DNA of 64,000 nt from a virus (taxonomy: Duplodnaviria; Heunggongvirae; Uroviricota; Caudoviricetes): the IMG/VR virus record IMGVR_UViG_3300044638_009648; one strand, written 5' to 3'. The notes beneath the pieces were generated by a model. That model ran no database searches and had not been told where the DNA came from. It was given only the letters and a program-made list of their open reading frames with translations. Shown one piece after another: positions 22,781-60,013 of the stretch. Numbering within the stretch: position 1 is the stretch's first letter; every line of letters begins with the position of its first letter. The position numbers and the translations under genes were made by a program.

Positions 22781-24202
22781 ATGATTTCGATGGTAACCAT
22801 GACAAAATCAAAAAATGCGCTCTCTCGTTTTGAGTTCTTGTTCAACAAGTATGTCAACCTTGAGAAATGGATGAGTTCTGAATATGAACTAAACTTTTTC
22901 CCTTATTATAATAGCGTGTTTGAAACAATCACATCCAAAGTGAATGTTGCAGATTTTTTTACCATCATTTTGTTTGACCCTACAACCCGTTTAAATGGTA
23001 TTACAGAACTTTACATCCAAAAGATGCTCGAAAATAAGACTCTTAATTTATCAGACTTGTGTGGTAAAATAAAAGTTGGTGAATATTCCGAGTGGTTAAT
23101 CAAACAGTTTTTGAATGTAGTATCCAACCAATCTAATGATAGTTCCGGTCAAGCTCGTGAAACTCTTTTACTGCGTGTTCGTTTTATTGAAGACCTCTAT
23201 AAGGTGCAAGAAAACCTTACGAAGTTTCATAGGTTCAAAAACCGTCTTATTGAAGATAATAGAGACATTAATAAACTTACGATTGGGGATTTGGAGTTTC
23301 TGATGTCGGAGTATTCTCTGGAAAAAACTAAGGCTACGGCAGAGGAGAAAGAGTCGGCAAAGAGTTCGTATTCATATCCTGGTTCGGAAATCGTTTTCAA
23401 AGGACTTAAATGGACAGTTGTCAAAATTAGTCAATTGAACGACTTGGCCAAAGATGCTGCATGTTTCTTTGGGGGTTATGATTTGAAACCAACAATGGGT
23501 GAAACAGCCTGGTGCACAGCCTCTCCTGGAACTTACAACCGTTACAACTATCATGCAGAAAAAGGTCCTTTGTATGTAGTGCTCCCTAATGAATGTGATA
23601 CGTTTGGAAAAAAAACAGGACTACCGTCAGTTAGGTATCAATTTCACTTCTCCACAAATCAATTCATGGACAAACACGACAAGAAAATTATTTTGACGGA
23701 TTATCTCAATGGTCCTATGTTGGAGCTTAAAGAATTTTTCAAACCTGAATTCGCTGCTGGATTGATAGGTAATGGTGGTGAAGAACTTTTGATTGATGAT
23801 TTTGAAAACGGTTCGGTTGGTAAGTACATTAAGTTGTATGGTCTTGATGATTTGTTTGATATTATTCCAGATACCTTGACCAAGATACATGTTAAAAATA
23901 GCAAAGCTGGTGTATCTCTGATTTTACCGGCCTCAATCACCCGGTTTAAAAATCTAACATCAATTTACTTCAAGAACTGTCTGTCAGAAATCCCTGAAGA
24001 AATCTGTTCACTTGAAAATCTTGTTTTTATAGCATTAGAGGGTAATCAAAATCTCAAGCAACTACCTGAAAAAATTATCGACTTACCAAAACTCTTATTC
24101 TTAAATCTAAAGGGTTGCTCTAATCTCACTCTCTCCGATTACTTTAAATCTAATAGTTTTGAGTTTGGTCCTGGTCTATGGAAAGGAAAAGCTATGATAT
24201 GA
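22781..24202 (+). CDS. Paralog family member 2: N-terminal WCTAS-motif domain fused to C-terminal leucine-rich repeats
   Basis: ETAWCTASPGTYNRYNYHAEKGPLYVVL core. C-terminal LRRs: LTSIYFKNCLSEIPEEICSLENLVFIALEGNQNLKQLPEKIIDLPKLLFLNLKGC. Confidence 0.55.
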   Translation: MISMVTMTKSKNALSRFEFLFNKYVNLEKWMSSEYELNFFPYYNSVFETITSKVNVADFFTIILFDPTTRLNGITELYIQKMLENKTLNLSDLCGKIKVGEYSEWLIKQFLNVVSNQSNDSSGQARETLLLRVRFIEDLYKVQENLTKFHRFKNRLIEDNRDINKLTIGDLEFLMSEYSLEKTKATAEEKESAKSSYSYPGSEIVFKGLKWTVVKISQLNDLAKDAACFFGGYDLKPTMGETAWCTASPGTYNRYNYHAEKGPLYVVLPNECDTFGKKTGLPSVRYQFHFSTNQFMDKHDKKIILTDYLNGPMLELKEFFKPEFAAGLIGNGGEELLIDDFENGSVGKYIKLYGLDDLFDIIPDTLTKIHVKNSKAGVSLILPASITRFKNLTSIYFKNCLSEIPEEICSLENLVFIALEGNQNLKQLPEKIIDLPKLLFLNLKGCSNLTLSDYFKSNSFEFGPGLWKGKAMI

Positions 24203-24236
24203 GTGTAATATAAGCTACAACAACATATTTATTATT

Positions 24237-26096
24237 ATGAAATTACTTAATATCTTAAATGGTACTCTTATAGTAGAGGTTTCTGAGAGCCTTAAGAAAA
24301 AGCTTTTGGATAAATTTAAACTTGAAACTCAAGACACTGAGAAAGATATTCTCGAATATATTGAGAGCTTCGAAAAATACCAACGGTCGCTTCCAGCTGA
24401 CCAGCGAGACATCACGCGTTACGATTTCAAAACTCTGAAGTCCTTAATTGACTCGATAGAAAATGGTAAAACTCGTAAAGCTGATGTGAATTCTGCGATT
24501 ACTAGTATAATCAAAAAAACACAGGAAAAAAAAGAAGTTTTTTCGTTACCAGAGTTACAGTTAGCGGTAAAAAAGTTTTTTGAAATTCAATCTGAAATAA
24601 AAGATGCTAACAAAGATATTAATAAGTTCAGTTATTTAAAACTCATACAATTTCTGGAAAAAAATTACGAGGACTTATTAACTCAGAAATTATTAAACAA
24701 ATTCAAACCGGAAAACCAAATTCTCACAAACGAGCAAATTTTATCTTATATTTCAGAATATATTGAAAATTTTAATGATATACCCTTTGATACGCCAGGT
24801 GCTGATTTAATGTCCTTTACCCAATTTGAACATTTAATTGATGCGATGATTGCAAAAAGAGGTCTTGGAAAAAAAACCAAAACTGAATTAAAAGATATTC
24901 CTCCTATCTATGATGATGGCGAAGACTTCAAAATTTATGCACCAACAGGAAAGGAACACTGTATCAAACTAGCCCATGGGCGTACTTGGTGTATTGGCTG
25001 GCTTGGTGGTCGAAACTTGTATTACAATTATCGAATAGGGAATGAAAGAACCATTTATTATGTTATAGACGAATCTTTAGACTACGAAGACCGTTATTTC
25101 GCAAATGTGATTTTGGTTGACCCAAGGGGTGGTACTTCTTTTGCTGACAAGACCAATTCTAGACCATTTGATGGCAGTGTGAATTTGCCTTGGGACGAAA
25201 TCTCTGGTTTCATTCCAAAGTTAAAAAATCTAAAAAATTTATTCGTTTCTAGACCCCTTAGCGAGGATGAAATCGAAATGCGGGACAGATATCAAAACAT
25301 AGAGTATGATAGACGTGGCAATAGAAGATTACCCAATAATCAAACCCCGATGGAATATTTTGATTCTCCAGAAAAGATTGCACAATGGATGGAAATTAAA
25401 GGGCCTGAGTTATTTGATGAAGATTACGCTAGTTTACCCCAAGAATTGAAAAAGAAGTACGTTGCTCTTGGATTTGATTTAACACCCGGTCAAATTGCTA
25501 CCTCTGAAGCTTCTGTTTTGAATTATTACGCTAAGAGAAAAATTGAGAATATTAAACAGAGCACTTTAAATAAGCTTGATGATGGTGATATTGCTTTATT
25601 AAATTCCCCAATTTTTAAGCAATTGAAACAGGAGTTGAAACCTCGTTTCAGTCAAGGTCTTTCAAGAAACTCAGACCCATCTGAATTTGAAGTACTTGGT
25701 TTTAGTAGAAACAGTGAAGTGGGTAAGTTTTTAAAGTTGTACAGTTTGGAAGACTTTATTGAATTCATCAATCCCAATGTAGAATCTATAACAATTCAAG
25801 GTGACGATTCTAATGTTAAAATCAAAATACCTAGAGCTATAGTTGAATTTAAAAATTTGGGAAGTTTAGTTTTGTCGAATGGTGTTATCGATGAAATACC
25901 GGACTACATTTGTGAACTCAAAAATTTGAAATTCTTAGGTTTACAGAATAATCCCGGAATCACTAGATTACCTGATTGTGTTGCAGATTTACCTTTACTT
26001 GAAATTCTAAATTTGCAAGGTTCGGATAATGTTGTTATTCCTGAATCAGTTAAAAATAGATTCTCAGAGGACTTAGGTCCTGGCATTTGGACGTAA
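24237..26096 (+). CDS. Paralog family member 3: WC-motif domain fused to C-terminal leucine-rich repeats
   Basis: HGRTWCIGWLGGRNLYYNYRIGNERTIYYVID core. LRRs: LGSLVLSNGVIDEIPDYICELKNLKFLGLQNNPGITRLPDCVADLPLLEILNLQG. Confidence 0.55.
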   Translation: MKLLNILNGTLIVEVSESLKKKLLDKFKLETQDTEKDILEYIESFEKYQRSLPADQRDITRYDFKTLKSLIDSIENGKTRKADVNSAITSIIKKTQEKKEVFSLPELQLAVKKFFEIQSEIKDANKDINKFSYLKLIQFLEKNYEDLLTQKLLNKFKPENQILTNEQILSYISEYIENFNDIPFDTPGADLMSFTQFEHLIDAMIAKRGLGKKTKTELKDIPPIYDDGEDFKIYAPTGKEHCIKLAHGRTWCIGWLGGRNLYYNYRIGNERTIYYVIDESLDYEDRYFANVILVDPRGGTSFADKTNSRPFDGSVNLPWDEISGFIPKLKNLKNLFVSRPLSEDEIEMRDRYQNIEYDRRGNRRLPNNQTPMEYFDSPEKIAQWMEIKGPELFDEDYASLPQELKKKYVALGFDLTPGQIATSEASVLNYYAKRKIENIKQSTLNKLDDGDIALLNSPIFKQLKQELKPRFSQGLSRNSDPSEFEVLGFSRNSEVGKFLKLYSLEDFIEFINPNVESITIQGDDSNVKIKIPRAIVEFKNLGSLVLSNGVIDEIPDYICELKNLKFLGLQNNPGITRLPDCVADLPLLEILNLQGSDNVVIPESVKNRFSEDLGPGIWT

Positions 26097-28917: not shown

Positions 28918-29247
28918 ATGTTTATTAAACCTCACCCCTACATAAAAAAAGTTGAAAGCAACTTAGATTTTATGTTCTCACTTTTCAGAGTGACCAATGT
29001 AAAAATTGAAAATACCCCAAGCTCAAAACACGAAATAGTTTATATTAATTCTGCTTATCCAGCCAAAGATTATAACGAAATTATTTACAAAACAGAGGGT
29101 GGAATCTATTTATTGTATAAGACAACAGGAAGTCCTGGCTATTATTCTCTGGAATGTTATTTTCCTGCTGATAAACATAACCAGGTTAAAATATTCCTTA
29201 ATTCAATTATTAAAAAAAATGACACAGTTAACAGCACAAGAAGTTAA
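28918..29247 (+). CDS. Hypothetical protein
   Basis: 109-aa ORF whose 3' end overlaps the thioredoxin start. Confidence 0.3.
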   Translation: MFIKPHPYIKKVESNLDFMFSLFRVTNVKIENTPSSKHEIVYINSAYPAKDYNEIIYKTEGGIYLLYKTTGSPGYYSLECYFPADKHNQVKIFLNSIIKKNDTVNSTRS

Positions 29248-29530
29248 AGAAAAAATTGAAAATAAAGAATCTTTCGTTTTGGATTTGTTTGCCACATGGT
29301 GTGGTCCATGTAAAGTATTGATGGGAAATCTTAACGCATTGGAAAAAAATAATAATGACCTTTCAATGCCAATTTATTCCTTAGATATTGATACTGATAG
29401 AGATTTTGTAATGGAGCTTGGTATTCGCTCTGTGCCTACACTTAAGATGTATAAGGGGGGGGAAGAAGTTTTCTCGAACGTTGGTGTTTTGAGTCAATCG
29501 CAACTCCTTGAAGTAATGGGTAGGTATTAA
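29219..29530 (+). CDS. trxA: Thioredoxin
   Basis: WCGPC active site (FATWCGPCKVL) and thioredoxin length. Start placed at the internal ATG (MTQLTAQEV). Confidence 0.8.
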   Translation: MTQLTAQEVKEKIENKESFVLDLFATWCGPCKVLMGNLNALEKNNNDLSMPIYSLDIDTDRDFVMELGIRSVPTLKMYKGGEEVFSNVGVLSQSQLLEVMGRY

Positions 29531-29812
29531 ATGGAAACCCATGTTATTGTCTTCACAATGAAAGGTTGTCCGCATTGTGATGATTTCAAAGAAATGTTAA
29601 AAAAAGAGGGTGTTGAGTTTATTGATAGAGATATTGAGATTCATAAAGAAGAGTATGATGTATTCGTTGAAGTAACTGAAAACGATTACGTTCCCGCTTT
29701 GCTTATTATTGAAGAAGAGGCAGAAAATCATAAATCTTTTTTGTATGCACCAGACCGTGATTACAACGAGCTCACGGAAGCTGTGGATATAATCAAGAAG
29801 CACATTAAATAG
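29531..29812 (+). CDS. Glutaredoxin/NrdH-like redoxin
   Basis: CPHC active site near the N-terminus (FTMKGCPHCDDFK); about 93 aa. Confidence 0.65.
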   Translation: METHVIVFTMKGCPHCDDFKEMLKKEGVEFIDRDIEIHKEEYDVFVEVTENDYVPALLIIEEEAENHKSFLYAPDRDYNELTEAVDIIKKHIK

Positions 29813-29889: not shown

Positions 29890-32800
29890 ATGCCTAGCAA
29901 TATAACTATATTTCCTAGTAACTTAGTTCCTCAACCTTTAAGGAGACCGAATATTGTTTTTGAATATTCAGTGTCAACGATGAAGCTTGAGGTTCTTTTT
30001 GCTGCGGCTATTCAAATTGCAAATCAACTCCTTATAGCACCACAATCTGGTTGTACTGAATTTTCAATTGCTGCGACGAGTAGTCCAAGTGCTACTGTTC
30101 AATATACTGATTGTAATACTGGAGAATCAAAATCTATTGTTGTTCCTAATGGTTCTACATGGTACCGATGCGCAAGAACTGGAACTGTTTCAACAACATC
30201 TGGAACTTCAACAAATACCAGCTTAGGTGCGTGTTACCCGAAAGTCCAAATTTATAGTGGTCTTACCGTTAACAATTATCTTAGCATTGGCGGAGTTCAA
30301 GTTTTAAACGGTACGGGAAATTGGTTAGGTCCGGGAACAAATATTACTGGAGCTCAAGGGGCTCAAGGAGCAACTGGCGCACAGGGAGCAACCGGCGCTC
30401 AAGGAGCACAAGGAGCTACAGGCTCACAAGGGGCAGTTGGGGTCCAGGGTGCTCAGGGGGGCACCGGAGCACAAGGCCCCAGGGGTAATCAAGGTGCTCA
30501 AGGCGCTATCGGTTCACAAGGAGCTACGGGAGCCCAAGGACTTCTAGGGACTACAGGCGCTCAAGGGGCAACTGGCTCCCAAGGAGCTACTGGAGCCCAA
30601 GGTCCTCGAGGGCCTCAGGGAGCAATTGGTGCACAAGGTGCTGTTGGTGCGCAAGGGACCCAAGGACCTAGAGGTAACCAAGGAGCTCAGGGTGCTGTGG
30701 GGTCTCAAGGTGCTACTGGAATCCAAGGTAGTAGAGGACCTCAGGGTGATTCAGGAGCCCAAGGTGCGCAAGGTGGTACAGGAGTACAAGGTCCTAGAGG
30801 TAACCAAGGTGTGCAAGGTGCTACTGGAGATTTGGGTGGACAAGGAGCCCAAGGTGCTGCTGGACCAAAAGGGGATGGTGGTGCGTCTGGAGCGCAAGGA
30901 GCTACAGGAGGTCAGGGTCCACGAGGTCCTCAAGGTGCTGTTGGTTCACAAGGTGCACTCGGAGCTCAGGGAGCTCAAGGAACTGTCGGCCCACAAGGAG
31001 CCCAAGGTGCCACGGGTGCACAAGGAGCCACCGGAGCCCAAGGTTCCAGAGGACCCCAGGGTGCCCAAGGAGCCCAAGGAGTGCAAGGTGCGGTCGGTGC
31101 CCAAGGCGATAAAGGGAATACAGGTGCTCAAGGTGCTCAAGGTGCCACTGGTGCTATTGGCTCACAAGGAGCTAGAGGACCGCAAGGAGCCCAAGGAGCA
31201 ATAGGTTCTCAAGGAGCCACAGGAGCACAGGGACCTAGGGGTCCTCAGGGTTCTATTGGCGCACAAGGAGCAACTGGACCAACTGGTGCCCAAGGCACTG
31301 TTGGACCTAAAGGAGAAGGTGGTGCCTCAGGAGCTCAGGGAGCCACAGGAGCACAAGGCTCAAGAGGAAATCAAGGGGTTCAAGGAGCCACAGGTTCTCA
31401 AGGAGCTACTGGAGCTCAAGGACAATTAGGTCCCCAGGGTGTACAAGGAGCAATCGGTTCCCAAGGTGCGACAGGAGCACAAGGTGCAAGAGGACCTCAG
31501 GGAGCTCAAGGCGCAACTGGAGCTCAGGGAGCAACTGGAGCGCAAGGGGCCAGTGGACCCCAGGGAGCTATAGGTATACAAGGAGCCACAGGAGCCCAAG
31601 GAGCTCAGGGAGCTCGAGGTCCACAGGGTTCTGTTGGTGCTCAAGGAGCACAGGGTGCTTTAGGTGCTCAAGGTGCTGCCGGTCCAAAGGGAGACGGCGG
31701 CGCAACTGGTTCTCAAGGAGCTACTGGAGCTCAAGGACAATTAGGTCCCCAGGGTGCACAGGGAGCAATCGGTTCGCAAGGTGCCACAGGAGCACAGGGT
31801 GCAAGAGGACCACAAGGAGCTCAAGGAGCTACGGGAGCTCAAGGAGCCACAGGAGCCCAAGGTTCAAGAGGACCCCAAGGAGCTATCGGTGCTCAAGGAG
31901 CACAAGGAGCCACAGGTGCTCAAGGTTCAAGAGGTCCGCAAGGTCCTGTCGGAGCCCAAGGAGCACAAGGAGCCACAGGTGCTCAAGGTTCAAGAGGTCC
32001 GCAAGGTGCCATTGGGTCTCAGGGTGCTACCGGCGGACAAGGGGCTCAAGGTGCTGCTGGTCCCAAAGGCGATGGTGGTGCATCAGGCGCAACTGGAGGC
32101 CAAGGAGCACAAGGTGCTAAAGGTCCTCAGGGTTCTAATGGCGCTCAAGGAGCCCAAGGAGCAACTGGTGCCCAAGGACCAAGAGGTCCCCAAGGAGCTA
32201 TCGGAGCCCAAGGTGGTACTGGTAACACAGGAGCTCAAGGAGCCAAGGGTCCGCAGGGTCCATTAGGCTCTCAAGGAGCAACGGGTAATACAGGAGCTCA
32301 AGGCGCTAGAGGACCTCAAGGAGCAACTGGTTTTGAGGGAGCAACTGGCTCAACAGGTGCTCAAGGTCCACGCGGACCTCAAGGTGCTGGCGGGTTTCAA
32401 GGTGCTACCGGAAATCAAGGAGCACAAGGGGCTGTTGGTCCAAAAGGCTCGGCCGGCGCTCCTGGTAATCCAGGTGCAACTGGCGCACAAGGAGCTAGAG
32501 GACCACAAAGTGATGCTGCCCCCGTTGCTGGAGCTCAAGGAGGTACTGGTGCGCAAGGCAGCAGAGGCCCCCAGGGCGCTCAGGGGGCCCAGAGTGGTAC
32601 AGGATTCCAAGGGGCACAAGGCGCTAGAGGTCCACAAGGAGCACAAGGAGCACAAGGTGCCACAGGGAACACAGGGGCTCAAGGGGCTCGAGGCCCTCAA
32701 GGAGGTAAAGGTGGCACAGGTCCAGTAGGAGCAATAGGTGCTCAAGGTTCCCGTGGTCCTCAAGGCCTAGTGGGTGCTCAGGGTGCTACTGGATTTTCAG

Positions 32801-33771
32801 GTGCACAAGGGGCAAGAGGTCCCCAAGGAGCAACAAATGGAGCTTTACAAGGTGCTACAGGAGCTCAAGGTTCCAGGGGACCACAGGGAGCTACAGGTTT
32901 TCAAGGTTTTCCTGGTTTTACTGGATTTCCGGGTGCCAATGGACCCCAGGGTGCTCAGGGAGCCCAGGGTGCTAGAGGTCCACAAGGAGCTCAAGGGGCA
33001 CGAGGTCCTCAAGGTGCACAGGGTGGCACGGGTCCTGTGGGTAACACTGGAGCAAGGGGTGCCCAAGGGGCAACGGGTAGTCAAGGATTCCAAGGAGCAC
33101 AAGGTTCTTTAATTCTTGGACCTCAAGGGGCACAGGGTGCCACAGGAGCTACCGGTGCTCAGGGACCCACTGGTCCAACCGCACCAAGTTGTGTTGCACA
33201 TTTTGTGTCTAACTGTTATAGTAGTGACGTGGATGCTTGTGGTGCGAAATCTCCAGGCGATTATCAAACGATTTATTCCCCTTGTGCTGTTTTGGCAAAC
33301 GGTTGCCGCCTTTGGGCAGACTCTTTATGTACAACTGGTTGCCCTTGTGACCCTGGGTTTGAATACATATCTGACGGTGTTAATGTTTGGTTAGTAGACG
33401 CTAACTGCGAATTAGCTAATGAGACACCCTGTACCTCTGTTTCTGATGGTAGATTAAAAACAAACGTGTTAACCATTGATAATTCTTTGGAATTATTGCT
33501 GAAGTTGGAACCTGTAGAATTTGATTGGAAAGAAATAACTCCGGAATACAAATATTTTGTGGAGAAAGGTATTACCCACTCTGTTGGGTTTATTGCTCAG
33601 CAAGTAAAAACTGTTGTTCCCGAAATTGTTCAAATGCGACCAAACGGATATTATACGGTTGATTACCCCCGAGTTAACGCTTTACTTGTTGAAGGTATAA
33701 AGGAACAACAAGTATTTATTGAGGACTTGGAAAAAGACATAACTGAACTTGAAAAATTATTTGAATTGTAA
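29890..33771 (+). CDS. Collagen-like fibre protein 1 (1293 aa) with Cys-rich module and C-terminal peptidase S74 intramolecular-chaperone domain
   Basis: About 940 residues of uninterrupted Gly-X-Y ([16 protein letters not shown]...). The C-terminus SDGRLKTNV ... [16 protein letters not shown] matches the endosialidase / tail-fibre auto-cleaving chaperone domain (S-D-x-R-L-K-x-N). Confidence 0.85.
30349..33180 (+). repeat. Gly-X-Y (GGN-GCN-CAR) triplet-repeat tract of fibre 1
   Basis: Direct 9-nt periodicity visible in the sequence. Confidence 0.9.
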
Positions 33772-36700
33772 TGGCTATTGATGTCATCATTTATCCCACT
33801 GGTGTGACTGGTAATGCAATCCCTCAAATTATTTTTGAGGATGCTGCTGGTGCCAAAATGGGTTTGATATATGAGGGGCCAAATTTAAGGTTTTCAGCTT
33901 CAACATCCATATCCTTGGTAACGGTAAGCCCAACGTCTGTTATTACTTCGGGTACTAGCGTTAGTAACGCCACAACTGGTATTTGGGCTGGGGAAACTTT
34001 GATGATTAACACCATTGGTGAATGGGTGGGACCACCCTTTAATATTCAAGGTTCTCAAGGAGCTCAAGGAGCAATAGGTTCCCAAGGAGCCCAAGGTGCT
34101 CAAGGAGCTCAAGGTGCTAAAGGAGCGCAAGGTGCCATAGGACCTCAAGGCGCCCAGGGTGCTCAAGGTGCTCAAGGCGCCCAAGGCGGTGTACAAGGTG
34201 CGCAAGGAGGCACTGGCGCTCAAGGAGCACAAGGTGCTCAAGGAGCACAAGGTGCTGTACAAGGAGCCCAAGGAGCTACCGGTGGCCAGGGAGCTCAGGG
34301 AGCACAGGGAGCACAGGGAGGTGTCCAAGGAGTCCAGGGTGCAACCGGAGCTCAAGGTGCCCAAGGAGCCGCTGGAACCCAAGGAGGAGTTCAAGGGGTG
34401 CAAGGTGCCACAGGAGGTCAAGGAGCTCAAGGAGCTACCGGTGCTCAAGGAGCAACTCAAGGTGCTATCGGTCCCCAAGGGGCACAAGGAGCACAAGGTG
34501 CCGCGGGAACTCAAGGTGGTGTCACTGGAGCTCAAGGAGCAAAAGGATTTCAAGGAGCACAAGGAGCACAAGGTGCCCAAGGTGGCGTCACTGGAGCCCA
34601 AGGAGCTCAAGGAGCGCAGGGGGCACAAGGTTCCCAGGGAGCTCAGGGTGCACCTCAAGGTGCTACAGGAGGTCAAGGTGCCCAAGGTGCACAAGGTGGA
34701 ATTGGTGCTCAGGGTGGAACTACTGGTGCCCAAGGTGCTCAAGGTGCTACAGGAGCTCAAGGTGCTACAGGAGCTCAAGGAGCAACTCAAGGTGTCCAGG
34801 GTGCCACAGGTTTTACAGGAGGTCAAGGTGTCCAAGGCGCACAGGGTGGTGTTCAAGGAGCCCAAGGTGCCATAGGAACACAAGGTGCTACTGGAGGTCA
34901 AGGAGCGCAAGGGTCTCCCACAGGAGGTCAGGGAGCTACAGGCTCACAGGGTGCACAAGGTTCTCAAGGGGCCCAAGGACTAGCAACAGGCTCTCAAGGG
35001 GCACAAGGTGCCCAAGGAGGACAAGGAGCTCAGGGAGCCCAAGGTGGCGTAACTGGAGCTCAAGGAGCTCAAGGAGCTCAAGGCGCTCAAGGTGCTATTG
35101 GTGCCCAGGGTGGTGTTGTCGGAGCCCAAGGTGCTATAGGAGCGCAAGGTGCTACGGGAGCTCAAGGTGCACAAGGTGGTGTTACAGGTGCTCAAGGAGC
35201 TACAGGCGGACAAGGAGCTCAAGGAGCAACCGGTGCTCAAGGATTACCTACAGGAATTCAAGGCACAACAGGCGCTCAGGGAGCTCAAGGTGCTACTGGT
35301 GCCCAAGGTTTACCCACAGGAGCCCAAGGTGCTCAAGGAGCCACTGGAGCTCAAGGTGCTACTGGTGCCCAAGGATTGCCCACGGGAAACCAAGGTGCTC
35401 AAGGTTCCCAAGGAGCACAAGGGGCTCAAGGTGCACAAGGTGGTGTAACAGGCGCTCAAGGAGCCCAAGGTGCCCAAGGTGCCACTGGTGCCCAAGGTGC
35501 ACAGGGTGGTGTCACTGGAGCCCAGGGCGGGACAGGTGGACAAGGAGCACAAGGCGCTCAAGGAGCCACAGGTTCTCCCCAAGGAGCTCAGGGAGTTCAA
35601 GGGGCTACTGGTGCCCAAGGACAAGTTGGTGCGCAAGGTTTACCCACAGGAGATACCGGAGGTCAAGGAATTCAAGGGTCACAAGGTGCCACTGGTGCCC
35701 AAGGCTCCGTACAAGGAGCCACAGGCTCTCAAGGTATTACAGGAGCACAAGGTGCCGTAGGAGCCCAAGGTGGTCCAACTGGAGCTCAAGGAGCCACAGG
35801 AGCACAAGGTGCACAAGGAGCCACAGGAGCTCAAGGAGGTATAACAGGTGCTCAAGGAGCACAAGGAGCCCAAGGAGCTCAAGGCGCAACGGGTGCTCAA
35901 GGAGGTCCAACAGGTTCTCAGGGTGCCCAGGGAGCTCAAGGCGCTCAGGGTGCCACAGGTGCAACTGGAGGTATTACTGGGGCCACAGGGGCACAAGGTG
36001 CTCAAGGACCCCAAGGTGCTCAGGGTGCCACAGGGGGCGTTACTGGAGCTACTGGAGCTACTGGTGCACAAGGACCACAAGGTGCTCAAGGTGCTGCTGG
36101 ATTACCCCAAGGCGCACAAGGACCACAAGGTGCTCAAGGTGCTCAAGGTGCTAAAGGAGCGCAAGGTGCCATAGAAGGTGCCGATGGTCTTCAAGGTTCT
36201 CAAGGACCCCAAGGAGCTCAAGGAGCTCAAGGAGGCGGAACAGGTGCTCAAGGCGCACAGGGACCCCAAGGAGCACAAGGAGCTACTGGTGCTCAAGGAG
36301 GACCTATGGGTGCCACAGGAGCACAAGGAGCACAAGGAGCACAAGGTGCCACAGGAGCGCAAGGTGCTGTCGTAGGTGCTCAAGGAAACACACCGTTTCC
36401 AGGCGCTACAGGAGGAACTGGAGCACAAGGATTGCCAACTGGAGGTCAAGGATTTCAAGGTAGCCAAGGATTTCAAGGAGCTACTGGTGCCCAAGGAGGT
36501 GCACAAGGAGCACAAGGAGCAATAGGAGCCCAAGGGGCTCAAGGAGCCACAGGGGCTCAGGGAGGCGTAACAGGTGCTCAAGGTGCACAAGGCGCACAAG
36601 GACCACAGGGTGCCACAGGTGCTCAAGGAGGCCCAACAGGAGCCCAGGGTTCTTTAGGTCCCCAGGGTGCACAAGGAGCACAAGGAGCGACAGGTGGTGT

Positions 36701-37358
36701 GACAGGTGCACAAGGTCCCCAAGGTGCACAGGGAGCACAAGGCCCCCAAGGGGAAAATAGTGCAACCCCTGGCTCACAAGGAGCTCAAGGTCAAGTAGGT
36801 GAATTACCTGGAGCACAAGGTGCATCCAATGCAACAACAGGAGCCCAGGGGGCTACACCTGGAGCAGGACCACAGGGAGCTCAGGGAGCACAAGGTTCTG
36901 AAGGTATAAAAGGACCCCAAGGTGCGCAAGGACCTAGTACAGGAGGGCCTCCAGGACCCCAAGGTGCCCAAGGAGCCCAAGGTGCACAAGGACCAACTGG
37001 ACCAACTGGACCACCCTCAGATTATAGATTAAAAACTAATGTTATCCCATTGACAAATGTTACAAGTAAAGTTATTGACATGCGAGGGGTCAAATTTGAA
37101 TGGCTAGAAAATATCCCCCAATTGGAACATATACCAGAAGCCCAACATTTTTATCTCAAGGGAAAAAGTATTGGATTTATTGCCCAAGAAATTGAAAAAA
37201 TATTTCCAGAATTAGTTTTGGAAGATAGATATGGGTATAAGAACATTCAGTACGATATTTTAGTTGCCATTGGCGTTGCTGCTGTAAAAGAAAATAATGA
37301 AAGAATTATTCTATTGAAAAATAAAATCAAACCCTTAAAATCATTTATAGGTGGCTGA
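33771..37358 (+). CDS. Collagen-like fibre protein 2 (1195 aa) with C-terminal S74 chaperone domain
   Basis: Gly-X-Y repeats with frequent one-residue register interruptions (GGVTG, GLPTG, GATQG). C-terminus [14 protein letters not shown] ... [16 protein letters not shown]. Confidence 0.85.
34048..37016 (+). repeat. Gly-X-Y triplet-repeat tract of fibre 2
   Basis: Seen directly in the sequence. Confidence 0.9.
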
Positions 37359-40300
37359 GAATATCATTATTTTTCCCGGAAGTGCTATGTTTGAATTTGT
37401 TGACTCTGGGTCAACAACTTCGAACTGGACTTTTATTGATTCAGGAACAGGATTGAGATTTCAGAATAATTCCTATGATTTATTAGACATTGTTGATAAT
37501 AGTATCAGCTTTAGAGTTAGATATGCCAATTTGTATGTAGATTCCATAACAAACAATTTTGGAAAAATTATTGATGGAACTGGATGGTTAGGAAACCAAA
37601 ACGCTGGGCCCCAAGGTGCACAAGGTGCTAAAGGACCAACTGGTGCAACTGGAGCAACTGGTGCGATAGGAAATATAGGTGCTCAAGGTGCTCAGGGGGC
37701 TACTGGTCCAACCGGAATCCAAGGGGCTACAGGAGCTCAAGGTGCTCAAGGATTTCAAGGAGCTCAAGGAGCTCAAGGTGCTAATGGAGCTCAAGGAGCT
37801 ACAGGACCACAAGGCGCTCAAGGGTTTCAAGGCGCTCAAGGGGCACAAGGAGCAATTGGTGCACAAGGTGCTCAAGGATTTCAAGGAGCTCAAGGAGCTC
37901 AAGGTGGTATTGGTTCCCAAGGAGCCCAGGGGGGTCAAGGATTTCAAGGAGCTCAAGGTGCTCAAGGCGCGGTAGGAGCTCAAGGAGCCCAAGGTGGTCA
38001 AGGATTTCAAGGTATAACCGGAAGCCAGGGAGCAGTTGGAGCACAAGGTGCTCAAGGAGGTCAAGGATTTCAAGGTGCCCAAGGAGCACAAGGTGGAACG
38101 GGAGCGCAAGGAGCGCAAGGAGCGCAAGGAGCTCAAGGTGTTTTGGGTATACAAGGGGCAGTCGGAGCCCAGGGCGCACAGGGAGGTCAAGGATTCCAAG
38201 GTGCTCAAGGAGCCCAAGGTGCAACTGGTGCCCAGGGAGCACAAGGAGGTCAAGGATTTCAAGGAAATATAGGTTCTCAAGGTTCAACTGGAGCACAGGG
38301 TGCTCAAGGTGGACAAGGATTTCAAGGAGCTCAAGGTGGTCAAGGATTTCAAGGAGCTCAAGGAGCCCAAGGAGCCCAAGGAGTCCAAGGTTCTGTGGGT
38401 GGACAAGGAGCGCAAGGAGCACAGGGTGCACAAGGAGGTCAAGGATTTCAGGGAGCAACTGGTGCCCAAGGAGCTATTGGTGCCCAGGGCGCACAGGGAG
38501 GTCAAGGATTTCAAGGAGCAACTGGTGCTCAAGGAGCTGTTGGTGCCCAAGGAGCACAGGGAGGTCAAGGAGCACAAGGAGTTTTAGGAACACAAGGTTC
38601 CGTTGGGGCACAAGGTGCCCAAGGTGCTCAGGGATTTCAAGGGGCTCAAGGAGTGCAAGGTGCTACAGGCGCCCAAGGAGCACAGGGAGGTCAGGGATTC
38701 CAAGGGGCACAAGGAGCGCAAGGTGCAGTAGGAGCACAAGGCGCACAGGGCGGTCAAGGATTCCAAGGTAATGTTGGTGCTCAGGGTGCGGTAGGAGCTC
38801 AAGGAGCTCAAGGTGGTCAAGGATTTCAAGGTGCTACTGGAGCCCAAGGTGCGGTAGGAGCTCAAGGTGCCCAAGGTGGTCAAGGATTTCAAGGAGCGCA
38901 AGGAGCAAATAGTGTAACTGGCGCACAAGGCGCACAGGGTGGTCAGGGTGCTCAAGGTATTCCTGGATTCCAAGGAGCCCAAGGCGCCACAGGAGCTCAA
39001 GGAGCTCAAGGATTCCAAGGCGCCCAAGGAGCTCAAGGAGCCGTCGGAGCACAAGGAGCACAAGGTGGACAAGGTTTCCAAGGTGGTACTGGAGCCCAAG
39101 GAGCAACAGGGGCACAAGGAGCCCAAGGTGGTCAAGGATTTCAAGGAGCCCAAGGGGCTCAAGGAGCAACAGGGGCACAAGGAGCCCAAGGTGGTCAAGG
39201 ATTTCAAGGAGCCCAAGGAGCCCAAGGAGCAACTGGAGCTCAAGGCGCTCAAGGAGGTCAAGGATTCCAAGGAGCCCAAGGAGCTACGGGGGCACAAGGT
39301 CCCGTTGGGGCACAAGGTGGTCAGGGAGCTCAAGGTGTGTTAGGTACTCAAGGTACTGTTGGTGCCCAGGGAGCACAAGGTGGTCAAGGATTTCAAGGTG
39401 TTGCTGGAAATACAGGTGAAGTTGGAGCACAGGGTGCTCAAGGCGCTCAAGGATTCCAGGGAGCCCAAGGAGCAGGCGGTGGTACTGGACCACAAGGTGC
39501 TCAAGGCGGTCAAGGATTCCAAGGAGCTCAAGGAGCTACAGGAGCTACAGGAGCGCAAGGGGCACAAGGTGGACAAGGTTTCCAGGGAGGTACTGGCTCA
39601 ACAGGTTCACAAGGTTCACAAGGAGCTCAGGGTGGACAAGGATTCCAAGGTCCTCCAGGTGATTCGGGAGGAACTGGCTCAGTTGGAGCTCAAGGTGGTC
39701 AAGGAGGGCAAGGACTTCCAGGAGTTACAGGACCACAAGGTTCACAAGGAGCTCAGGGTGGGCAAGGTTTTCAGGGAGCACAGGGGCCTATTGGTTCACA
39801 AGGTTCGCAAGGAGCTCAAGGTGGTCAAGGTTTTCAGGGTAATGTAGGTGCAACAGGCGCTCAAGGCGCTCAAGGTGCTCAAGGAGGTCAGGGATTCCAA
39901 GGAGCAACTGGAGCAGTGGGTCCACAAGGTGCGCAAGGTTCCCAGGGTGGACAAGGATTTCAAGGGGCTATAGGTTCCCAAGGGGCGACTGGAGCTCAAG
40001 GAGCCCAGGGAGCTCAAGGATTCCAGGGTCCACTGGGTGCTCAGGGTGCTACCGGGGTTCAAGGGGCTCAAGGTGGGCAAGGATTCCAAGGAGCACAGGG
40101 CACTCTAGGTCCGACAGGAGCTCAAGGAGCCACGGGTGCCCAAGGATTCCAAGGTGCCACCGGAGCCAAGGGTTTAGCGGGGTCAACCGGAGCACCAGGT
40201 TCACCAGGTCCTCAGGGAGCTCAAGGAGCTCAGGGAGCACAAGGATTCCAAGGTGCTCAAGGTGGCCAAGGATTTCAAGGTGCTGCTGGTGCAATTACTA

Positions 40301-40770
40301 TAGGAGCACAAGGCCAACAAGGAGCGCAAGGAGCCAAAGGAAGTGTAGACGGGGCTCAAGGTGCCTCTGGTGGTACAGCAACGGGTTTTCAGGGCGCGCA
40401 AGGAACAACAGGTCCAAGTGGAGCTCCAGGCCCAACGGGTCCCTCAGATTACAGATTGAAAAAAAATGTCGAAAATATTACTTCAGCACTAGACTTGGTT
40501 CAAAAACTTAGGGGTGTAAGATATAATTGGATACCTGGTATAAACAAAGATACTAGTGCTGTTGAAATTGGGTTTATTGCCCAAGAAATTGGTGAATATA
40601 TTCCTGAAGTTTTATTTGGTTCAGAAAATACACAATATGGTGTGAGATATAAGGAAGTTGTTGCTGTTACAATTGAAGCTATCAAAGAGCAAGAATCCAA
40701 AATCAGTGAACTTGAAAAGAGATTACAAGCAGTTTTGGATAAAGCACAACAAAAAGGTCTGATTATTTAA
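37351..40770 (+). CDS. Collagen-like fibre protein 3 (1139 aa) with C-terminal S74 chaperone domain
   Basis: Gly-X-Y repeats organised as a 7-triplet (21 aa / 63 nt) higher-order unit ...[13 protein letters not shown].... C-terminus [13 protein letters not shown] ... [16 protein letters not shown]. Confidence 0.85.
37603..40443 (+). repeat. Gly-X-Y triplet-repeat tract of fibre 3 (63-nt higher-order periodicity)
   Basis: Seen directly in the sequence. Confidence 0.9.
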
Positions 40771-44657: not shown

Positions 44658-45824
44658 ATGAAGATTAAATTAGAATATGTATGGCTTGACGGTTATTCCC
44701 CGGAGCCTAATCTTAGAAGTAAGGTTAAAGTAATAGACACACCTCACCAGGAAGGTAGAATTACCTTGGATGATTGCCCTGAGTGGAGCTTCGATGGTTC
44801 GTCAACGCGACAAGCTGAAGGCAAGTTTTCTGACTGCATTTTGAAACCGGTGAGAGTTTATGAAAATATCCTTAACAAAGGGTATTTGAAATCATACTTT
44901 GTTTTGTGTGAGGTTATGAACCCTGATGGTACGCCTCACATTACCAACACCAGAGCAAATGTGGGTGAAGAAGAAGTAGGTCTTTGGTTCGGTTTTGAGC
45001 AAGAGTATACCATCTACCAAAACGGTAGACCTCTAGGATTTCCCAAGAACGGTTATCCCGAACCCCAGGGCAAATACTACTGCGGTGTGGGCAACGGACA
45101 GGTTCACGGACGAGAGTTTGTTGACAATCACATGGAGATGTGCATCAAAGCTGGAATTGAAATCACCGGAACCAACGCAGAAGTGTTGCTAGGTCAGTGG
45201 GAGTTCCAGGTTTTCAGCAAAGGAAAACTCAAAGCTGGTGATGACCTTTGGATGGCTCGTTATATTCTCCTGCAGATGAGCGAAGAGTACGGATTCAAAA
45301 TCGAATTCCACCCCAAACCAGTACAAGGTGATTGGAATGGTTCTGGACTTCACTGCAACTTCTCTAATGATAGAATGCGTGAAGAGGGGGGTGAAGAATA
45401 CTTCAATAACATCTTCCGTTCTTTTGATGTGCGTCACCAAGAACACATCCAAAACTATGGTTCGGAAAACAACCTTCGTTTAACTGGTAAACATGAAACG
45501 CAATCCATTGACACATTCAGTTGGGGTGTTTCGGACCGTGGTGCTTCAATCCGTGTTCCACTAGCTACTTCTAAGGAATGGAAAGGATATGTTGAAGACC
45601 GTCGTCCAGCATCGAATGGTGACCCTTATAAGATTGTTCGTGTAATTGCTGAGGCTTTGGACTTTGCTCTGCAGTTGGACAAAATAAATCACACAATAAA
45701 CAGCAAGATTGATGTTGAAAAAGCTAAGGAAATGCTTGCTTTTCTTGGTATTAACTACAATTTAGATAACCGTCATGATTACGACGAAGAAGAGCGTACC
45801 ATTGATAATATTGGAAAGGAATAA
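44658..45824 (+). CDS. glnII: Glutamine synthetase type II (eukaryote-like GSII)
   Basis: Near-colinear match to GSII over the whole length: FDGSSTRQAEGKFSD ... LCEV ... FEQEYT ... GFPKNGYPEPQGKYYCGVG ... GTNAEV ... QWEFQ ... RLTGKHETQSIDTFSWGVSDRGASIRVP ... KGYVEDRRPASNGDPY. Confidence 0.9.
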   Translation: MKIKLEYVWLDGYSPEPNLRSKVKVIDTPHQEGRITLDDCPEWSFDGSSTRQAEGKFSDCILKPVRVYENILNKGYLKSYFVLCEVMNPDGTPHITNTRANVGEEEVGLWFGFEQEYTIYQNGRPLGFPKNGYPEPQGKYYCGVGNGQVHGREFVDNHMEMCIKAGIEITGTNAEVLLGQWEFQVFSKGKLKAGDDLWMARYILLQMSEEYGFKIEFHPKPVQGDWNGSGLHCNFSNDRMREEGGEEYFNNIFRSFDVRHQEHIQNYGSENNLRLTGKHETQSIDTFSWGVSDRGASIRVPLATSKEWKGYVEDRRPASNGDPYKIVRVIAEALDFALQLDKINHTINSKIDVEKAKEMLAFLGINYNLDNRHDYDEEERTIDNIGKE

Positions 45825-54911: not shown

Positions 54912-54985
54912 TGCGGATTAGAGTTCTGGTGAACTCGGAAGTCTCATAAGCTTTCTTCAGGGTTGTTCGATTCAGCCATCCGCTA
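54912..54985 (+). tRNA. Candidate tRNA-Met(CAU)
   Basis: Hand-folded cloverleaf: acceptor TGCGGAT / ATCCGCT (1:72 mismatch); D stem GAGT / ACTC; anticodon stem GAAGT / GCTTT (two G-U pairs) with loop CTCATAA (U33, CAU anticodon); T stem GGTTG / CAGCC with T-loop TTCGATT. The variable loop is 6 nt, one longer than usual. Confidence 0.4.
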
Positions 54986-55860
54986 CAAAAAAAAGTTTGA
55001 TAAGGTACTTGACAAAATCAAAACCGTTATTATACTTTAACAACAAGTCAGGGAAACTTGACGAGTTCTTTGAATTACAAAATAGGCGGTTTAGCGTCTT
55101 TAGATAACCCCAGCGATGGGACTAAAAGGGATGAAGGGTTTAGCGACCTTGGTAATCTCGCAGGACTTCGGTCTTGACAACTAAACAAAGTACCTACGGT
55201 TGAAACCCTGACGGCAAGTGCTGAGGGGATGATGCCACACCGATTTCGTGGAGAGTCGGGGTTGCGGTGGAGACACCAATAGGAAAAGGTACAGGTGACG
55301 GTTTGAGACATCCCGCCGGGTGTTGTAAAGCTGGGTACCAGTCCGAAGGGTTACCACGGGGTTAAACCTACCGTAGTCCTGAGTGACCGTGAACTGGCGG
55401 GTTCACAGAGAGGTGTGAAGCATTTTGTTCCCAAAAGGAGCGGAACTTCTCCCGAAGCACATCTTTCATTCTTCCACAAAGCTACATATCAATGAATGAT
55501 ATTCTAAGATACAAGCAAAAGTCTTCGGGCGTTGATACTGAAAGGTGTCTAATCCTTCAGGTCATCGGACCAATGAAGGCATCAATCGGACCGCAAGTCC
55601 CTTGGTGTTAATTGTGAAACTACTCGTGGGACGGCCATCCCTTAGTGAGCTCGCAAGGCTCAAGAGATAGGAGTATCAGTTGAGTTGGTGTCAACGAAAA
55701 GAGTGGTAGACTCAAATTACCGACACTGGTTGGATACAACAGGCAACTGTTGTGGACCGAGTGGGGAAAGGATAATCCCACTAAAGACTGACCATCTAAG
55801 CTCGTAGTCTCAGAGCATTAGCCGAACCCCCTTCCGTAAGGTTGGGGGTTTTTTTATTTT
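54986..55860 (+). ncRNA. Candidate large structured non-coding RNA (unclassified)
   Basis: About 0.9 kb with no plus-strand ORF. It is markedly GC-enriched relative to flanks (hand count of one 128-nt stretch is about 57% G+C). Many local hairpins, and it ends in a strong intrinsic terminator. Confidence 0.3.
55825..55857 (+). terminator. Intrinsic terminator closing the GC-rich RNA block
   Basis: AACCCCC-ttccgtaagg-TTGGGGG followed by TTTTTTT. Confidence 0.7.
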
Positions 55861-57612: not shown

Positions 57613-58860
57613 ATGAATACAAAGAAACCATCAGCTATTGTATATGGTTGGCACACATCAGGGGAAACAGTATTAATATCAGACATTTATTGGGAAGAAG
57701 GTCTTCATGATGAAGTTAACATATATTCCTTACCATACACAAATAATGTAATTGAAGATTATACCAAATTCAAACCTGATTTGATAATTAGTTTCGGTGA
57801 AGAAATTGAAATTCCTCATTTTCATTTAACAAGATTTCACATTCATTATGATGAACTCATTCCGGATATTATCCTTGCTAATGTAATTGTTTGTCAATCT
57901 GTTTTTAGAAGCTCAACTAACTTCAGACCACGGTTTTCAATATTTACACCAACCTATAAAACTGGTGAAAGAATTTTTAGAACATACGAAGGTTTGAAAA
58001 ACCAATTATACAATAATTGGGAATGGGTTGTTGTTGACGATTCTCCTGATAATGAAACTTGGGAAAAATTAAGGGAAATTGCATCGAAAGATTATAGAGT
58101 TAAACTTCATAGAATATATCCTTTAACTGGTGGAAATGTTGGCCTAGCTAAAAATAGGGCTGCGCATCTTTGTGACGGGGATTGGATTGTTGAACTTGAC
58201 CACGATGACACATTGACAAGTGAATGCTTATCTACAGCAAATGATGCCATTGCCGCTTACCCCGACGCTGGTTTTATTTATACGGATTGTGCGGAAATGT
58301 ATGATGATGAAGAACCTAAATATTACGACCACGATTGGACAGGTAATTGGTATGCTAGGGAAGATAATTTTTTTGATTTCGGTTATGCTGGGCACACCTG
58401 GGTTGAAGTCGATGGTGAAACTAGACTGGCACACCATTACCCAGATATTAATCCATTAACAATTAGATTTAACATTTCTATGCCTAACCATGCTAAAATG
58501 TGGGATAGAAAGGTTTATCTGGAAATGGGGGGGCACAATAAATTCATCCCTGTTGCCGATGATTTGGAGATTAATATTCGCACTTTTTTGAATACTAAAA
58601 TGATTCACATAAAAAGGGTATTGTATTTGCAGTTCAATAACAGAAACAGTACCGTGGATAATAATTCAACAGATATTAATCGTCGTGCCAGATTAATCAA
58701 AGACCATTATGACAAAGCGGTTCATGACAGAATCGAAGAGTTAGGTTTTGAGGATTGGAATTGGGATAGTGAAAAACTTCACTCCCAAAAATTTCAAAAC
58801 TCCGGTGGTCCTCGCCGTTATTTTGAGGATGAACAAGTAATGAATTACATTTATGAATAA
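57613..58860 (+). CDS. Family-2 (GT-A fold) glycosyltransferase
   Basis: FSIFTPTYKTGERIFRTYEGLKNQLYNNWEWVVVDDSPDNET, the canonical GT2 N-terminus with DxD. Confidence 0.7.
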   Translation: MNTKKPSAIVYGWHTSGETVLISDIYWEEGLHDEVNIYSLPYTNNVIEDYTKFKPDLIISFGEEIEIPHFHLTRFHIHYDELIPDIILANVIVCQSVFRSSTNFRPRFSIFTPTYKTGERIFRTYEGLKNQLYNNWEWVVVDDSPDNETWEKLREIASKDYRVKLHRIYPLTGGNVGLAKNRAAHLCDGDWIVELDHDDTLTSECLSTANDAIAAYPDAGFIYTDCAEMYDDEEPKYYDHDWTGNWYAREDNFFDFGYAGHTWVEVDGETRLAHHYPDINPLTIRFNISMPNHAKMWDRKVYLEMGGHNKFIPVADDLEINIRTFLNTKMIHIKRVLYLQFNNRNSTVDNNSTDINRRARLIKDHYDKAVHDRIEELGFEDWNWDSEKLHSQKFQNSGGPRRYFEDEQVMNYIYE

Positions 58861-60013
58861 CAAAAAAGCAAAAATTGTACTTAATGCAATGGTGGCCAAT
58901 GAGGCCAGAACCATTACCAGAATGTTGGAATCTGTATATCAATACATTGATTATTGGGTTATACAGGACAATGGTTCTAAAGATGGTACACAGGACATAA
59001 TTAGAAACTTCTTTGAGGAAAAAGGAATACCAGGTTTTTTATATGAAACCGAATGGTTGTTTCCTGGATTCAACAGAGACCATGCTTTACAAGAATGTTT
59101 GAAAGCTGACCATGGTTGTGATTGGATTTTGCGAATGGATGCAGATGAAAGATTGGAAGTGGACTCTGATTTTGATTGGTCAATATTGGAAGATACAAAT
59201 ATTGATTCTTTTAATATCATTGTCAGAAGTTTCAACACTAGGTATTTCAGGACCTGGATGTGGAATGCCCGCAGACCTTGGTTTTTTCAACATGACAAAC
59301 GGCATGAAACAATTCATCTGCCAGAGGTTGGTGAATCATTCCAACGAATTACACTACCTGAAAGTTTTAGACACATTGTTACCAATGATGGACAAACTTG
59401 GTTTGCACCCAGGAAGTTTCTAAGAGATGCCCTGGAACTTGAAATTGATAAAGTTGTGGGTAACACCATACTTGAAGACCATTATCATTTATGGTATGTC
59501 GGGAAAAGTTATGCTGATTGTTACGGAAAACCTGATGAATTAGCTTTTGGAAAAGACCACTCTGATGAATATGCTCGTAGGGCAATTTATTACTTTAAAC
59601 ATTTTCTTAGGGTATCTCATAATTATTGGGAAACCAAAAAACCTGCAAGACATGATGAAATGGCTTACATGACTTTCATTCTTATTGCTGCAGCAATGGA
59701 TTTTCGTGGAGAAACTGAAGAAGCGTTGGGTATGTTTCCACAAGCCAAAGCATTTGCTCCTGAACGAAATGAACATTTGTTGTATTGGGCTATAATGTTG
59801 GAAAAACATGGAAAACATGATAAAGCATTAGAATTGGTTGATATGATGATGGTACCGGAAAAGAAAAATCCATTCCCTAATTTATGTTTTCTGATTGAAA
59901 ATCGTGCTTATACTGACACCTCAAATTTTTTGGTGGAGTGGAAAGAACACTTATTAAAAAGAATCAATGAACCTATTTTAAGTAACGAAGGTGTTGTCTT
60001 TGATTTCGAATAA
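58853..60013 (+). CDS. Glycosyltransferase family 2-like protein
   Basis: KIVLNAMVANEARTITRMLESV ... WVIQDNGSKDGT. Confidence 0.55.
   Translation: MNNKKAKIVLNAMVANEARTITRMLESVYQYIDYWVIQDNGSKDGTQDIIRNFFEEKGIPGFLYETEWLFPGFNRDHALQECLKADHGCDWILRMDADERLEVDSDFDWSILEDTNIDSFNIIVRSFNTRYFRTWMWNARRPWFFQHDKRHETIHLPEVGESFQRITLPESFRHIVTNDGQTWFAPRKFLRDALELEIDKVVGNTILEDHYHLWYVGKSYADCYGKPDELAFGKDHSDEYARRAIYYFKHFLRVSHNYWETKKPARHDEMAYMTFILIAAAMDFRGETEEALGMFPQAKAFAPERNEHLLYWAIMLEKHGKHDKALELVDMMMVPEKKNPFPNLCFLIENRAYTDTSNFLVEWKEHLLKRINEPILSNEGVVFDFE

Follow-up and report, generated by a model that had tools for sequence, protein, structure and literature searches.

A 64,000-nucleotide stretch of the IMG/VR virus record IMGVR_UViG_3300044638_009648 (Caudoviricetes), hereafter the window, is part of the genome of a large uncultured tailed phage. 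Within it we identified three adjacent paralogous genes whose products, fibers 1 to 3, are fiber proteins composed of an N-terminal head, a collagen-like rod, and a C-terminal peptidase S74 chaperone domain. Our analysis indicates that S74-driven homotrimerization, nucleation of the collagen helix, and self-cleavage of the chaperone would probably account, as a whole, for the maturation of all three fibers.

A peptidase S74 chaperone domain ends each fiber

A scan of all six reading frames of the window for the motif SD.R[LIFVM]K returned plus-strand matches at 33442, 37017, and 40444, together with one unrelated match on the minus strand at 11228. The three plus-strand positions are exactly those at which a first-pass annotation, made from the sequence alone, had placed the start of C-terminal domains of about 110 residues, and the domains indeed measure 108–113 residues. 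The segment 33442–33771, for example, translates as SDGRLKTNV...EKLFEL followed by a stop codon. By itself the hexapeptide is not significant, as by our estimate six frames of 64 kb should contain approximately 0.5 matches by chance. The isolated domains of fibers 1, 2, and 3 match PF13884 (Peptidase_S74, chaperone of endosialidase) with 56.9, 52.0, and 57.7 bits, respectively, and the full-length proteins do so with 50.6, 45.7, and 50.9 bits. All of these scores are more than twice the gathering cutoff of 22 bits, and the S74/endosialidase-chaperone identity suggested in the first-pass annotation is thereby borne out by the Pfam alignment that it had proposed as a check. Each match begins on the Ser at profile position 1, and the domains (109, 113, and 108 residues) lie at the extreme C terminus, ending 0–2 residues before the stop codons.

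Comparison with proteins of determined structure places the domains among chaperones of the same kind. When a profile of the three domains and their homologs was searched against the Protein Data Bank (PDB), it matched the entries for S16 gp37 (6f45, E 5e-15), a tail fiber (8jov, 6e-11), the MyRF ICA domain (7dc3, 1.4e-9), and the GA-1 neck-appendage chaperone (3gud, 0.009). In the alignment to 3gud, SD.R.K falls onto SDERHK, the first residues of the released chaperone. Single-chain AlphaFold models of the C termini of fiber 1 (predicted local distance difference test [pLDDT] 75) and fiber 3 (pLDDT 87) both consist of a small α/β unit followed by a terminal helix of 33–35 residues. When these models were searched against the PDB with Foldseek, the only significant matches for either were 7dc3, 3gw6 (the K1F endosialidase chaperone), and 3gud. 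The best match to both is 7dc3, a eukaryotic S74 homolog (E about 8e-6, TMq up to 0.72; for the fiber 3 model, E 8.6e-6 and TMq 0.72).

Residues that are invariant across the paralogs and their homologs include the Ser, Asp, Arg, and Lys of the motif, a G.IAQ strand-helix element, a Pro, a Tyr, and a KE pair. The G.IAQ element corresponds to a helix that had been described for all three fibers as IGFIAQE(I/V)...(F/I)PE(L/V). This wording fits fibers 2 and 3 but not fiber 1, which reads VGFIAQQV...VPEIV, and the models do not bear out a single helix: GF forms the end of a β strand and AQEI a short helix. The SD.R.K motif is present in every database homolog that covers the site (38/38 fiber-1-like and 32/32 fiber-3-like proteins, 70/70 in all) and is also kept in all fiber 2 orthologs. 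Since a domain that served only in trimerization would not need an invariant Ser, this conservation argues for catalysis. PHROG families that contain this S74 domain are nearly all composed of tail-fiber or baseplate proteins. In every respect that sequence can test, namely profile match, C-terminal position, Ser–Lys dyad, and modeled fold, the three domains are therefore members of the S74 family.

This family is represented by 191,722 proteins at E ≤ 0.001, of which we inspected the best 150. Many of these 150 representatives contain two S74 copies, and internal S74 domains are common among them, so that the domain is not confined to C termini. Giant representatives also occur (P0104, P0110, and P0156; 5145–5473 residues), with up to 18 matched stretches.

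The rods are long, repetitive, and matched in length

The approximately 1000 residues that precede S74 in each fiber are covered by matches to PF01391 (Collagen; E 1e-122, 4e-64, and 1e-101 for fibers 1, 2, and 3). The rods comprise approximately 945–990 residues, with 309, 305, and 313 Gly-X-Y triplets, most of which are G-A-Q; Pro is more frequent in the final triplets than in the remainder of the rod. Collagen rises 0.286 nm per residue. If this value applies here, the rods would be approximately 270–280 nm long. A super-period of seven triplets runs through all three; its lag is 21 residues in fibers 1 and 3 and 22 residues in fiber 2. In fiber 2 (34194–36704, residues 142–978), exactly seven triplets and a single additional Q or T (GGVQG and GLPTG are examples) make up a unit that occurs approximately 40 times, so that G-x-x-x-G interruptions recur strictly every 22 residues.

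For comparison we used orthologous loci from four other genomes, L003, L012, L016, and L017, of which L017 is the most distant; together with the window these make up the five genomes referred to below. Fiber 1 orthologs are present in all four. Triplet counts for fibers 1/2/3 are 309/305/313 in the window, 312/302/311 in L016, 356/344/356 in L012, and 376/368/375 in L003. The counts in L017 are 331/323/273, with a much shorter fiber 3. The three rods of a genome are thus matched in length, and this length co-varies from genome to genome, which suggests selection for matched fiber length. Head, junction, and S74 domain are conserved in the five genomes while the length of the rod changes by whole triplets.

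The three genes are tightly packed. The ATG of fiber 2 overlaps the stop codon of fiber 1 (TAATG), and the start of fiber 3 overlaps the end of fiber 2 by 8 nucleotides; the N terminus of fiber 3 that results from this start aligns with the other two heads. The heads (153, 93, and 85 residues) have a common core, which opens with N-I-x-I-F-P and has G-x-W-x-G-P immediately ahead of the rod, and the head of fiber 1 contains an additional Cys-containing insertion of approximately 60 residues. Searches with the heads returned no match in Pfam, PHROG, or the protein database, and no known fiber adaptor was matched. Fiber 1 orthologs in L002 (3573–8399), L003, L004, and L012 carry a non-collagen insert of approximately 130 residues (GGGQPTIYGPYWWTWVADSTFNG...) after the first few triplets, which is absent from fiber 1 of the window.

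Junctions between rod and chaperone are specific to each paralog

The segment joining rod and S74 domain differs in type between paralogs, and each type is conserved in the five genomes. In fibers 2 and 3 the collagen runs directly into the predicted catalytic Ser, with no tip domain in between. The fiber 2 rod ends in ...GPQGP(P/L) followed immediately by SD, and the fiber 3 rod in ...GAPGP(T/A)G(P/A) followed by SD (...GAPGPTGP in the window), so that the last triplet has the catalytic Ser as its Y residue. Junctions of the fiber 3 type, G-x-x-G-P-S followed by D, were found in 13 further, more distant protein clusters; direct passage from collagen to Ser is a widespread but uncharacterized sub-variant of S74 architecture. 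The 150 best S74 representatives included 147 newly retrieved proteins with 123 instances of the motif, and 14 of these have Pro directly before Ser, so a Pro–Ser junction is normal for the family.

Fiber 1 instead has a Cys-rich module between rod and chaperone, 81–87 residues long in the five genomes. The first-pass annotation had located this module correctly but had underestimated its Cys content, giving 8 Cys within about 80 residues where the window has 10 in 87. The Cys counts in the five genomes are 10, 14, 12, 12, and 12, with one Cys no more than 5 residues from the Ser. Outside the module, Cys residues are limited to four in the fiber 1 head; fibers 2 and 3 have none. The module is hypervariable (28%–45% identity) compared with the adjoining S74 domain (59%–79%) and is modeled as a small β-rich domain (pLDDT about 66–88). 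It has no match in Pfam or PHROG, and Foldseek searches of the PDB matched nothing beyond the S74 part. Its hypervariability and the even number of Cys in all five genomes are in keeping with the earlier suggestion of a disulfide-stabilized receptor-binding tip, and the module is probably the distal or receptor-binding end of the fiber after cleavage.

A proposed route from chaperone to mature fiber

The chaperone of phage T5 pb1 forms a trimeric coiled coil flanked by an α/β domain (PMC4690869). The substitution S1264A blocks cleavage between Thr1263 and Ser1264, the Ser being activated by Lys1269, and until its release the chaperone keeps the receptor-binding end covered (PMC4690869). Two residues act as a folding sensor in T5 and K1F, an Arg contributed by a neighboring chain and an Asp of the triple β helix upstream, such that cleavage takes place only after correct folding (PMC4690869).

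From the domain identity, catalytic motif, predicted fold, architecture, and conservation described above, we infer trimerization, helix nucleation, cleavage, and chain selection for the window fibers, as well as their location in the virion. Three identical chains would trimerize through the long C-terminal helix of S74. The S74 trimer would bring the Gly-X-Y chains into register at their Pro-enriched C-terminal ends and nucleate zippering of the triple helix in the C-to-N direction. Once the trimer is assembled, the Ser would be activated by the Lys at position +5 and would cleave its own N-terminal bond (Val–Ser in fiber 1, Pro–Ser in fibers 2 and 3), and the chaperone would leave. Mature fiber 1 would then end in the disulfide-rich, hypervariable 87-residue tip, a probable receptor binder, and in mature fibers 2 and 3 the bare collagen rod would itself form the end. 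The S74 domains of the paralogs are far less alike (36%–39% identity within the window) than those of orthologs (74%–81% in close relatives, 48%–61% in L017), and each may therefore select its own chain; the diverged S74 lineages would probably keep three similar, co-expressed G-A-Q chains from mixing.

Several observations weigh against this proposal. The rods are poor in Pro (5%–17% at X) and in charged residues, so the stability of the triple helix is only assumed. Because bare collagen meets the Ser in fibers 2 and 3, these lack the upstream β-helix folding sensor, and no Arg was found in the 40 upstream residues inspected; the module upstream of S74 in fiber 1 has no detectable similarity to the β-helix domains of T5 or K1F. 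Collagen abuts the motif in none of the 150 top S74 representatives, and we found no characterized relative with a direct collagen-to-Ser junction. Cleavage of fibers 2 and 3 may accordingly be triggered in another way, perhaps by a collagen helix that positions the scissile bond, or may be absent. Once cleaved, fibers 2 and 3 would be without a globular tip, which would be odd for a receptor-binding fiber. Finally, the fiber genes sit among genes for DNA metabolism and redox proteins, outside any recognizable tail module, so the label "tail fiber" is not established.

Alternative explanations

In fibers 2 and 3, and possibly in fiber 1, S74 could trimerize but stay uncleaved as a distal knob. 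A retained knob would suit fibers 2 and 3, whose C termini lack any further globular domain in all five genomes, and would fit with the absence of the T5/K1F β helix and its Arg/Asp sensor; moreover, phage collagen with a retained C-terminal trimerization domain is known, as in EPclA with its PfC domain (PMC3368898). We nonetheless find this unlikely, since the invariance of SD.R.K in all 32 fiber-3-like homologs and in all fiber 2 orthologs is hard to explain without catalysis, and Pro at the P1 position is common in the family. Another arrangement would combine one of each chain in a heterotrimeric collagen, for which the three S74 domains would form a heterotrimeric registration module comparable to procollagen C-propeptides or C1q A/B/C. 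This would explain the matched lengths, with triplet counts that agree within and co-vary between four genomes, and it is consistent with the super-period common to all rods, with overlapping genes that suggest coupled translation, and with the common core of the heads. However, the extra residue that recurs every 22 residues in fiber 2 is not seen in fibers 1 and 3, the interruptions in fibers 1 and 3 fall at different positions, and the 87-residue module of fiber 1 precludes in-register nucleation from a common S74 trimer; the L017 counts do not match either. In both 7dc3 and 6f45 one distinct sequence accounts for all three chains, and to our knowledge all solved S74 assemblies are homotrimers. 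Given the mismatched interruptions and the extra module, we judged a heterotrimer very improbable. Stated more broadly, co-assembly of the fibers as either a heterotrimer or a laterally packed bundle, with the S74 domains as self-excising chain-selection and registration modules like procollagen C-propeptides, strikes us as decidedly unlikely.

A further reading retains S74 processing of the trimers but makes the products long hairs on the capsid or another virion surface layer rather than tail fibers. It alters where the fibers sit, not how S74 works, and we regard it as possible, though not favored. The cluster lies outside any recognizable tail or baseplate module, between thioredoxin/glutaredoxin genes and genes of unknown function; 270–280 nm is very long for a tail fiber; three length-matched types would suit a uniform coat; and the heads resemble no known fiber adaptor. 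Set against these points are the PHROG families with S74, almost all of them tail-fiber or baseplate proteins, and the closest matches in isolated phages, which are virion tail fibers. The remaining alternative questions the genes themselves. Public gene callers split the rods into many spurious, out-of-frame, or partial open reading frames (ORFs; seen in L001–L004), and the S74 ends are stored in the protein database as "hypothetical proteins" of 90–190 residues, with no entry matching the heads; the fiber genes consequently look unannotated. Taken at face value, such calls would make the long Gly-X-Y ORFs accidents of GC-rich repeats and the S74 domains short stand-alone genes. This is scarcely credible: one stop-free frame joins head, rod, and S74 in every locus, whole-triplet changes in rod length accompany conserved flanking parts in five genomes, the Pfam Collagen match reaches E 1e-122, and the short "proteins" begin inside the rod or tip (e.g., P0004 in L002, 3573–8399). 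We rejected stand-alone S74 genes on inspection of the loci, where the homologs of 90–190 residues proved to be C-terminal pieces of mis-split ORFs of 1100–1600 residues. Homotrimeric fibers that are released from their S74 chaperones by self-cleavage remain our preferred explanation.

Genomic context

Elsewhere in the window are genes for a primase, an exonuclease, an SbcCD-like nuclease, a sigma factor, and an RnlA-like RNA ligase. Additional cargo includes an SprB-repeat protein, two leucine-rich repeat proteins, a glutamine-synthetase-like protein, a UmuC-like Y-family polymerase, and a tRNA-Met (42–1700; 22781–26096; 44658–45824; 62012–63214; and 54912–54986). The SprB-repeat protein is a weak hint of a Bacteroidota host. 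The gene at 62012, initially considered as a "DNA polymerase" phylogenetic marker, was dropped from that use on recognition of its UmuC-like Y-family identity.

Against 50,697 phage records, a megablast search with 21 kb of flanking sequence gave no match and hence no close relative, and tblastn searches with the S74 domains returned from isolated phages only matches of less than 46% identity, with alignments that begin at the Ser. In two of the isolated phages matched, S-SCSM1 and CRP-227, translation of the region upstream of the Ser gives β-rich fiber sequence, not collagen. One of the fiber proteins occurs verbatim on the NCBI metagenome contig JBFDBU010011267.1. The gene order orf542-orf109-thioredoxin-glutaredoxin-fiber 1-fiber 2-fiber 3-orf331(minus strand)-orf335 is kept in four other metagenomic or IMG/VR contigs, one of which encodes a fiber 2 head that is just 46% identical to that of the window. 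A scan for promoters and terminators as operon signals gave nothing decisive.

Directly upstream of the Cys-rich fiber 1 are genes for a thioredoxin (PF00085) and a glutaredoxin (PF00462; both within 29219–29812). These are the best-conserved genes of the neighborhood (74%–84% identity) and are present in all five genomes. They may function in nucleotide reduction, as in T4-like phages, or may be tied to the 14 Cys of fiber 1. The region 57613–61103 encodes two family-2 glycosyltransferases and, after them, a UDP-galactopyranose mutase (PF03275, E 5e-76). These make up a phage-encoded galactofuranose glycosylation module, the target of which could be a host surface polysaccharide or the Thr-rich fibers.

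Table 1. Coordinates and properties of the fiber genes and their predicted domains and cleavage sites
Feature	Coordinates	Strand	Length	Description
Fiber 1 ORF	29890..33771	+	1293 aa	Head, collagen, Cys-rich tip, S74; PF01391 E 1e-122, PF13884 E 2.4e-13
Fiber 1 head	29890..30348	+	153 aa	4 Cys
Fiber 1 collagen-like domain	30349..33180	+		309 Gly-X-Y triplets, uninterrupted run of 240, 21-residue super-period
Fiber 1 Cys-rich tip module	33181..33441	+	87 aa	10 Cys
Fiber 1 S74 domain	33442..33768	+	109 aa	PF13884 E 2.6e-15; model and Foldseek; PDB profile matches
Fiber 1 predicted catalytic residues	33442-33444 (Ser1185), 33457-33459 (Lys1190)			Predicted nucleophile Ser1185; predicted scissile bond Val1184-Ser1185
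Fiber 2 ORF	33771..37358	+	1195 aa	Head, collagen, S74
Fiber 2 collagen-like domain	34050..37016	+		305 triplets; ...GPTGPTGPP immediately before Ser
Fiber 2 S74 domain	37017..37355	+	113 aa	PF13884 E 9e-14; alignments
Fiber 2 predicted catalytic residues	37017-37019 (Ser1083), 37032-37034 (Lys1088)			Predicted scissile bond Pro1082-Ser1083
Fiber 3 ORF	37351..40770	+	1139 aa	GTG start; head, collagen, S74
Fiber 3 collagen-like domain	37606..40443	+		313 triplets (runs of 145 and 153), 21-residue super-period with Phe (GGQGFQG)
Fiber 3 S74 domain	40444..40767	+	108 aa	PF13884 E 1.4e-15; model pLDDT 86.7
Fiber 3 predicted catalytic residues	40444-40446 (Ser1032), 40459-40461 (Lys1037)			Predicted scissile bond Pro1031-Ser1032

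Discussion

The window fibers share the placement of PF13884 at the extreme C terminus with K1F endosialidase (3GW6), T5 pb1, GA-1/phi29 gp12 (3GUD), and S16 gp37 (6F45). They also share with phage S74 chaperones the S-D-x-R-x-K spacing and an α/β unit followed by a long helix, which in those proteins is a trimeric coiled coil. A clear difference lies upstream: the characterized phage chaperones fold a triple β helix or β prism whose residues join in cleavage, whereas here collagen or a Cys-rich module takes that position. The S74 domains of the window are also minimal, at 108–113 residues versus the 133 C-terminal residues of the T5 pb1 chaperone, and in view of this size difference they probably lack the long β-hairpin tentacles of T5. 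In MyRF, the source of the best structural match, the S74-type domain sets a transcription factor free from a membrane protein; MyRF has neither collagen nor a virion role.

The combination of collagen and S74 is itself already known. By domain annotation, polinton-like viruses encode proteins with collagen repeats and a C-terminal chaperone of endosialidase (PMC12220804), and both domains are enriched in the genomic islands of giant viruses (PMC13620141). The polinton-like proteins resemble ours in that PF01391 is followed by a C-terminal PF13884 in a viral fiber protein, but they belong to eukaryotic viral elements and have one or two collagen Pfam matches, in contrast to three tandem tailed-phage paralogs of approximately 310 triplets each. 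Among phage-encoded collagens, EPclA and EPclB from prophages of E. coli O157 have been shown experimentally to form trimeric collagen rods with a C-terminal trimerization domain (PMC3368898), an organization that we predict here as well. They differ in having a retained PfC domain instead of S74, together with a PCoil coiled coil; a Pfam scan of the full-length window fibers detected only PF01391 and PF13884, and no PfN, PfC, PCoil, or procollagen C-propeptide domain. S74 is not mentioned in a review of prokaryotic collagens (PMC8968730). In animal fibrillar collagens, the procollagen C-propeptide selects and registers three chains, nucleates folding in the C-to-N direction, and is then removed (compare PMC5353611). 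It is a functional analog only, without homology to S74, and removal in the phage fibers would be autocatalytic rather than performed by a separate proteinase. The annotation of the three fibers is therefore sound but does not describe a new kind of system, nor is the biology of the S74 domain itself new.

The value of the annotation lies in turning three "hypothetical" regions, broken up by public gene callers into dozens of small ORFs, into interpretable virion fibers with a predicted maturation step, for which the exact catalytic residues are named. The direct junction of collagen and Ser allows one to test if an upstream β-helix sensor is truly required for S74 cleavage, and it would be a compact, self-removing trimerization and registration tag for recombinant collagens. 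If the fibers do co-assemble, they would represent a viral, autocatalytic counterpart of procollagen assembly, yielding fibers of approximately 270 nm, two types of which would be bare-ended.

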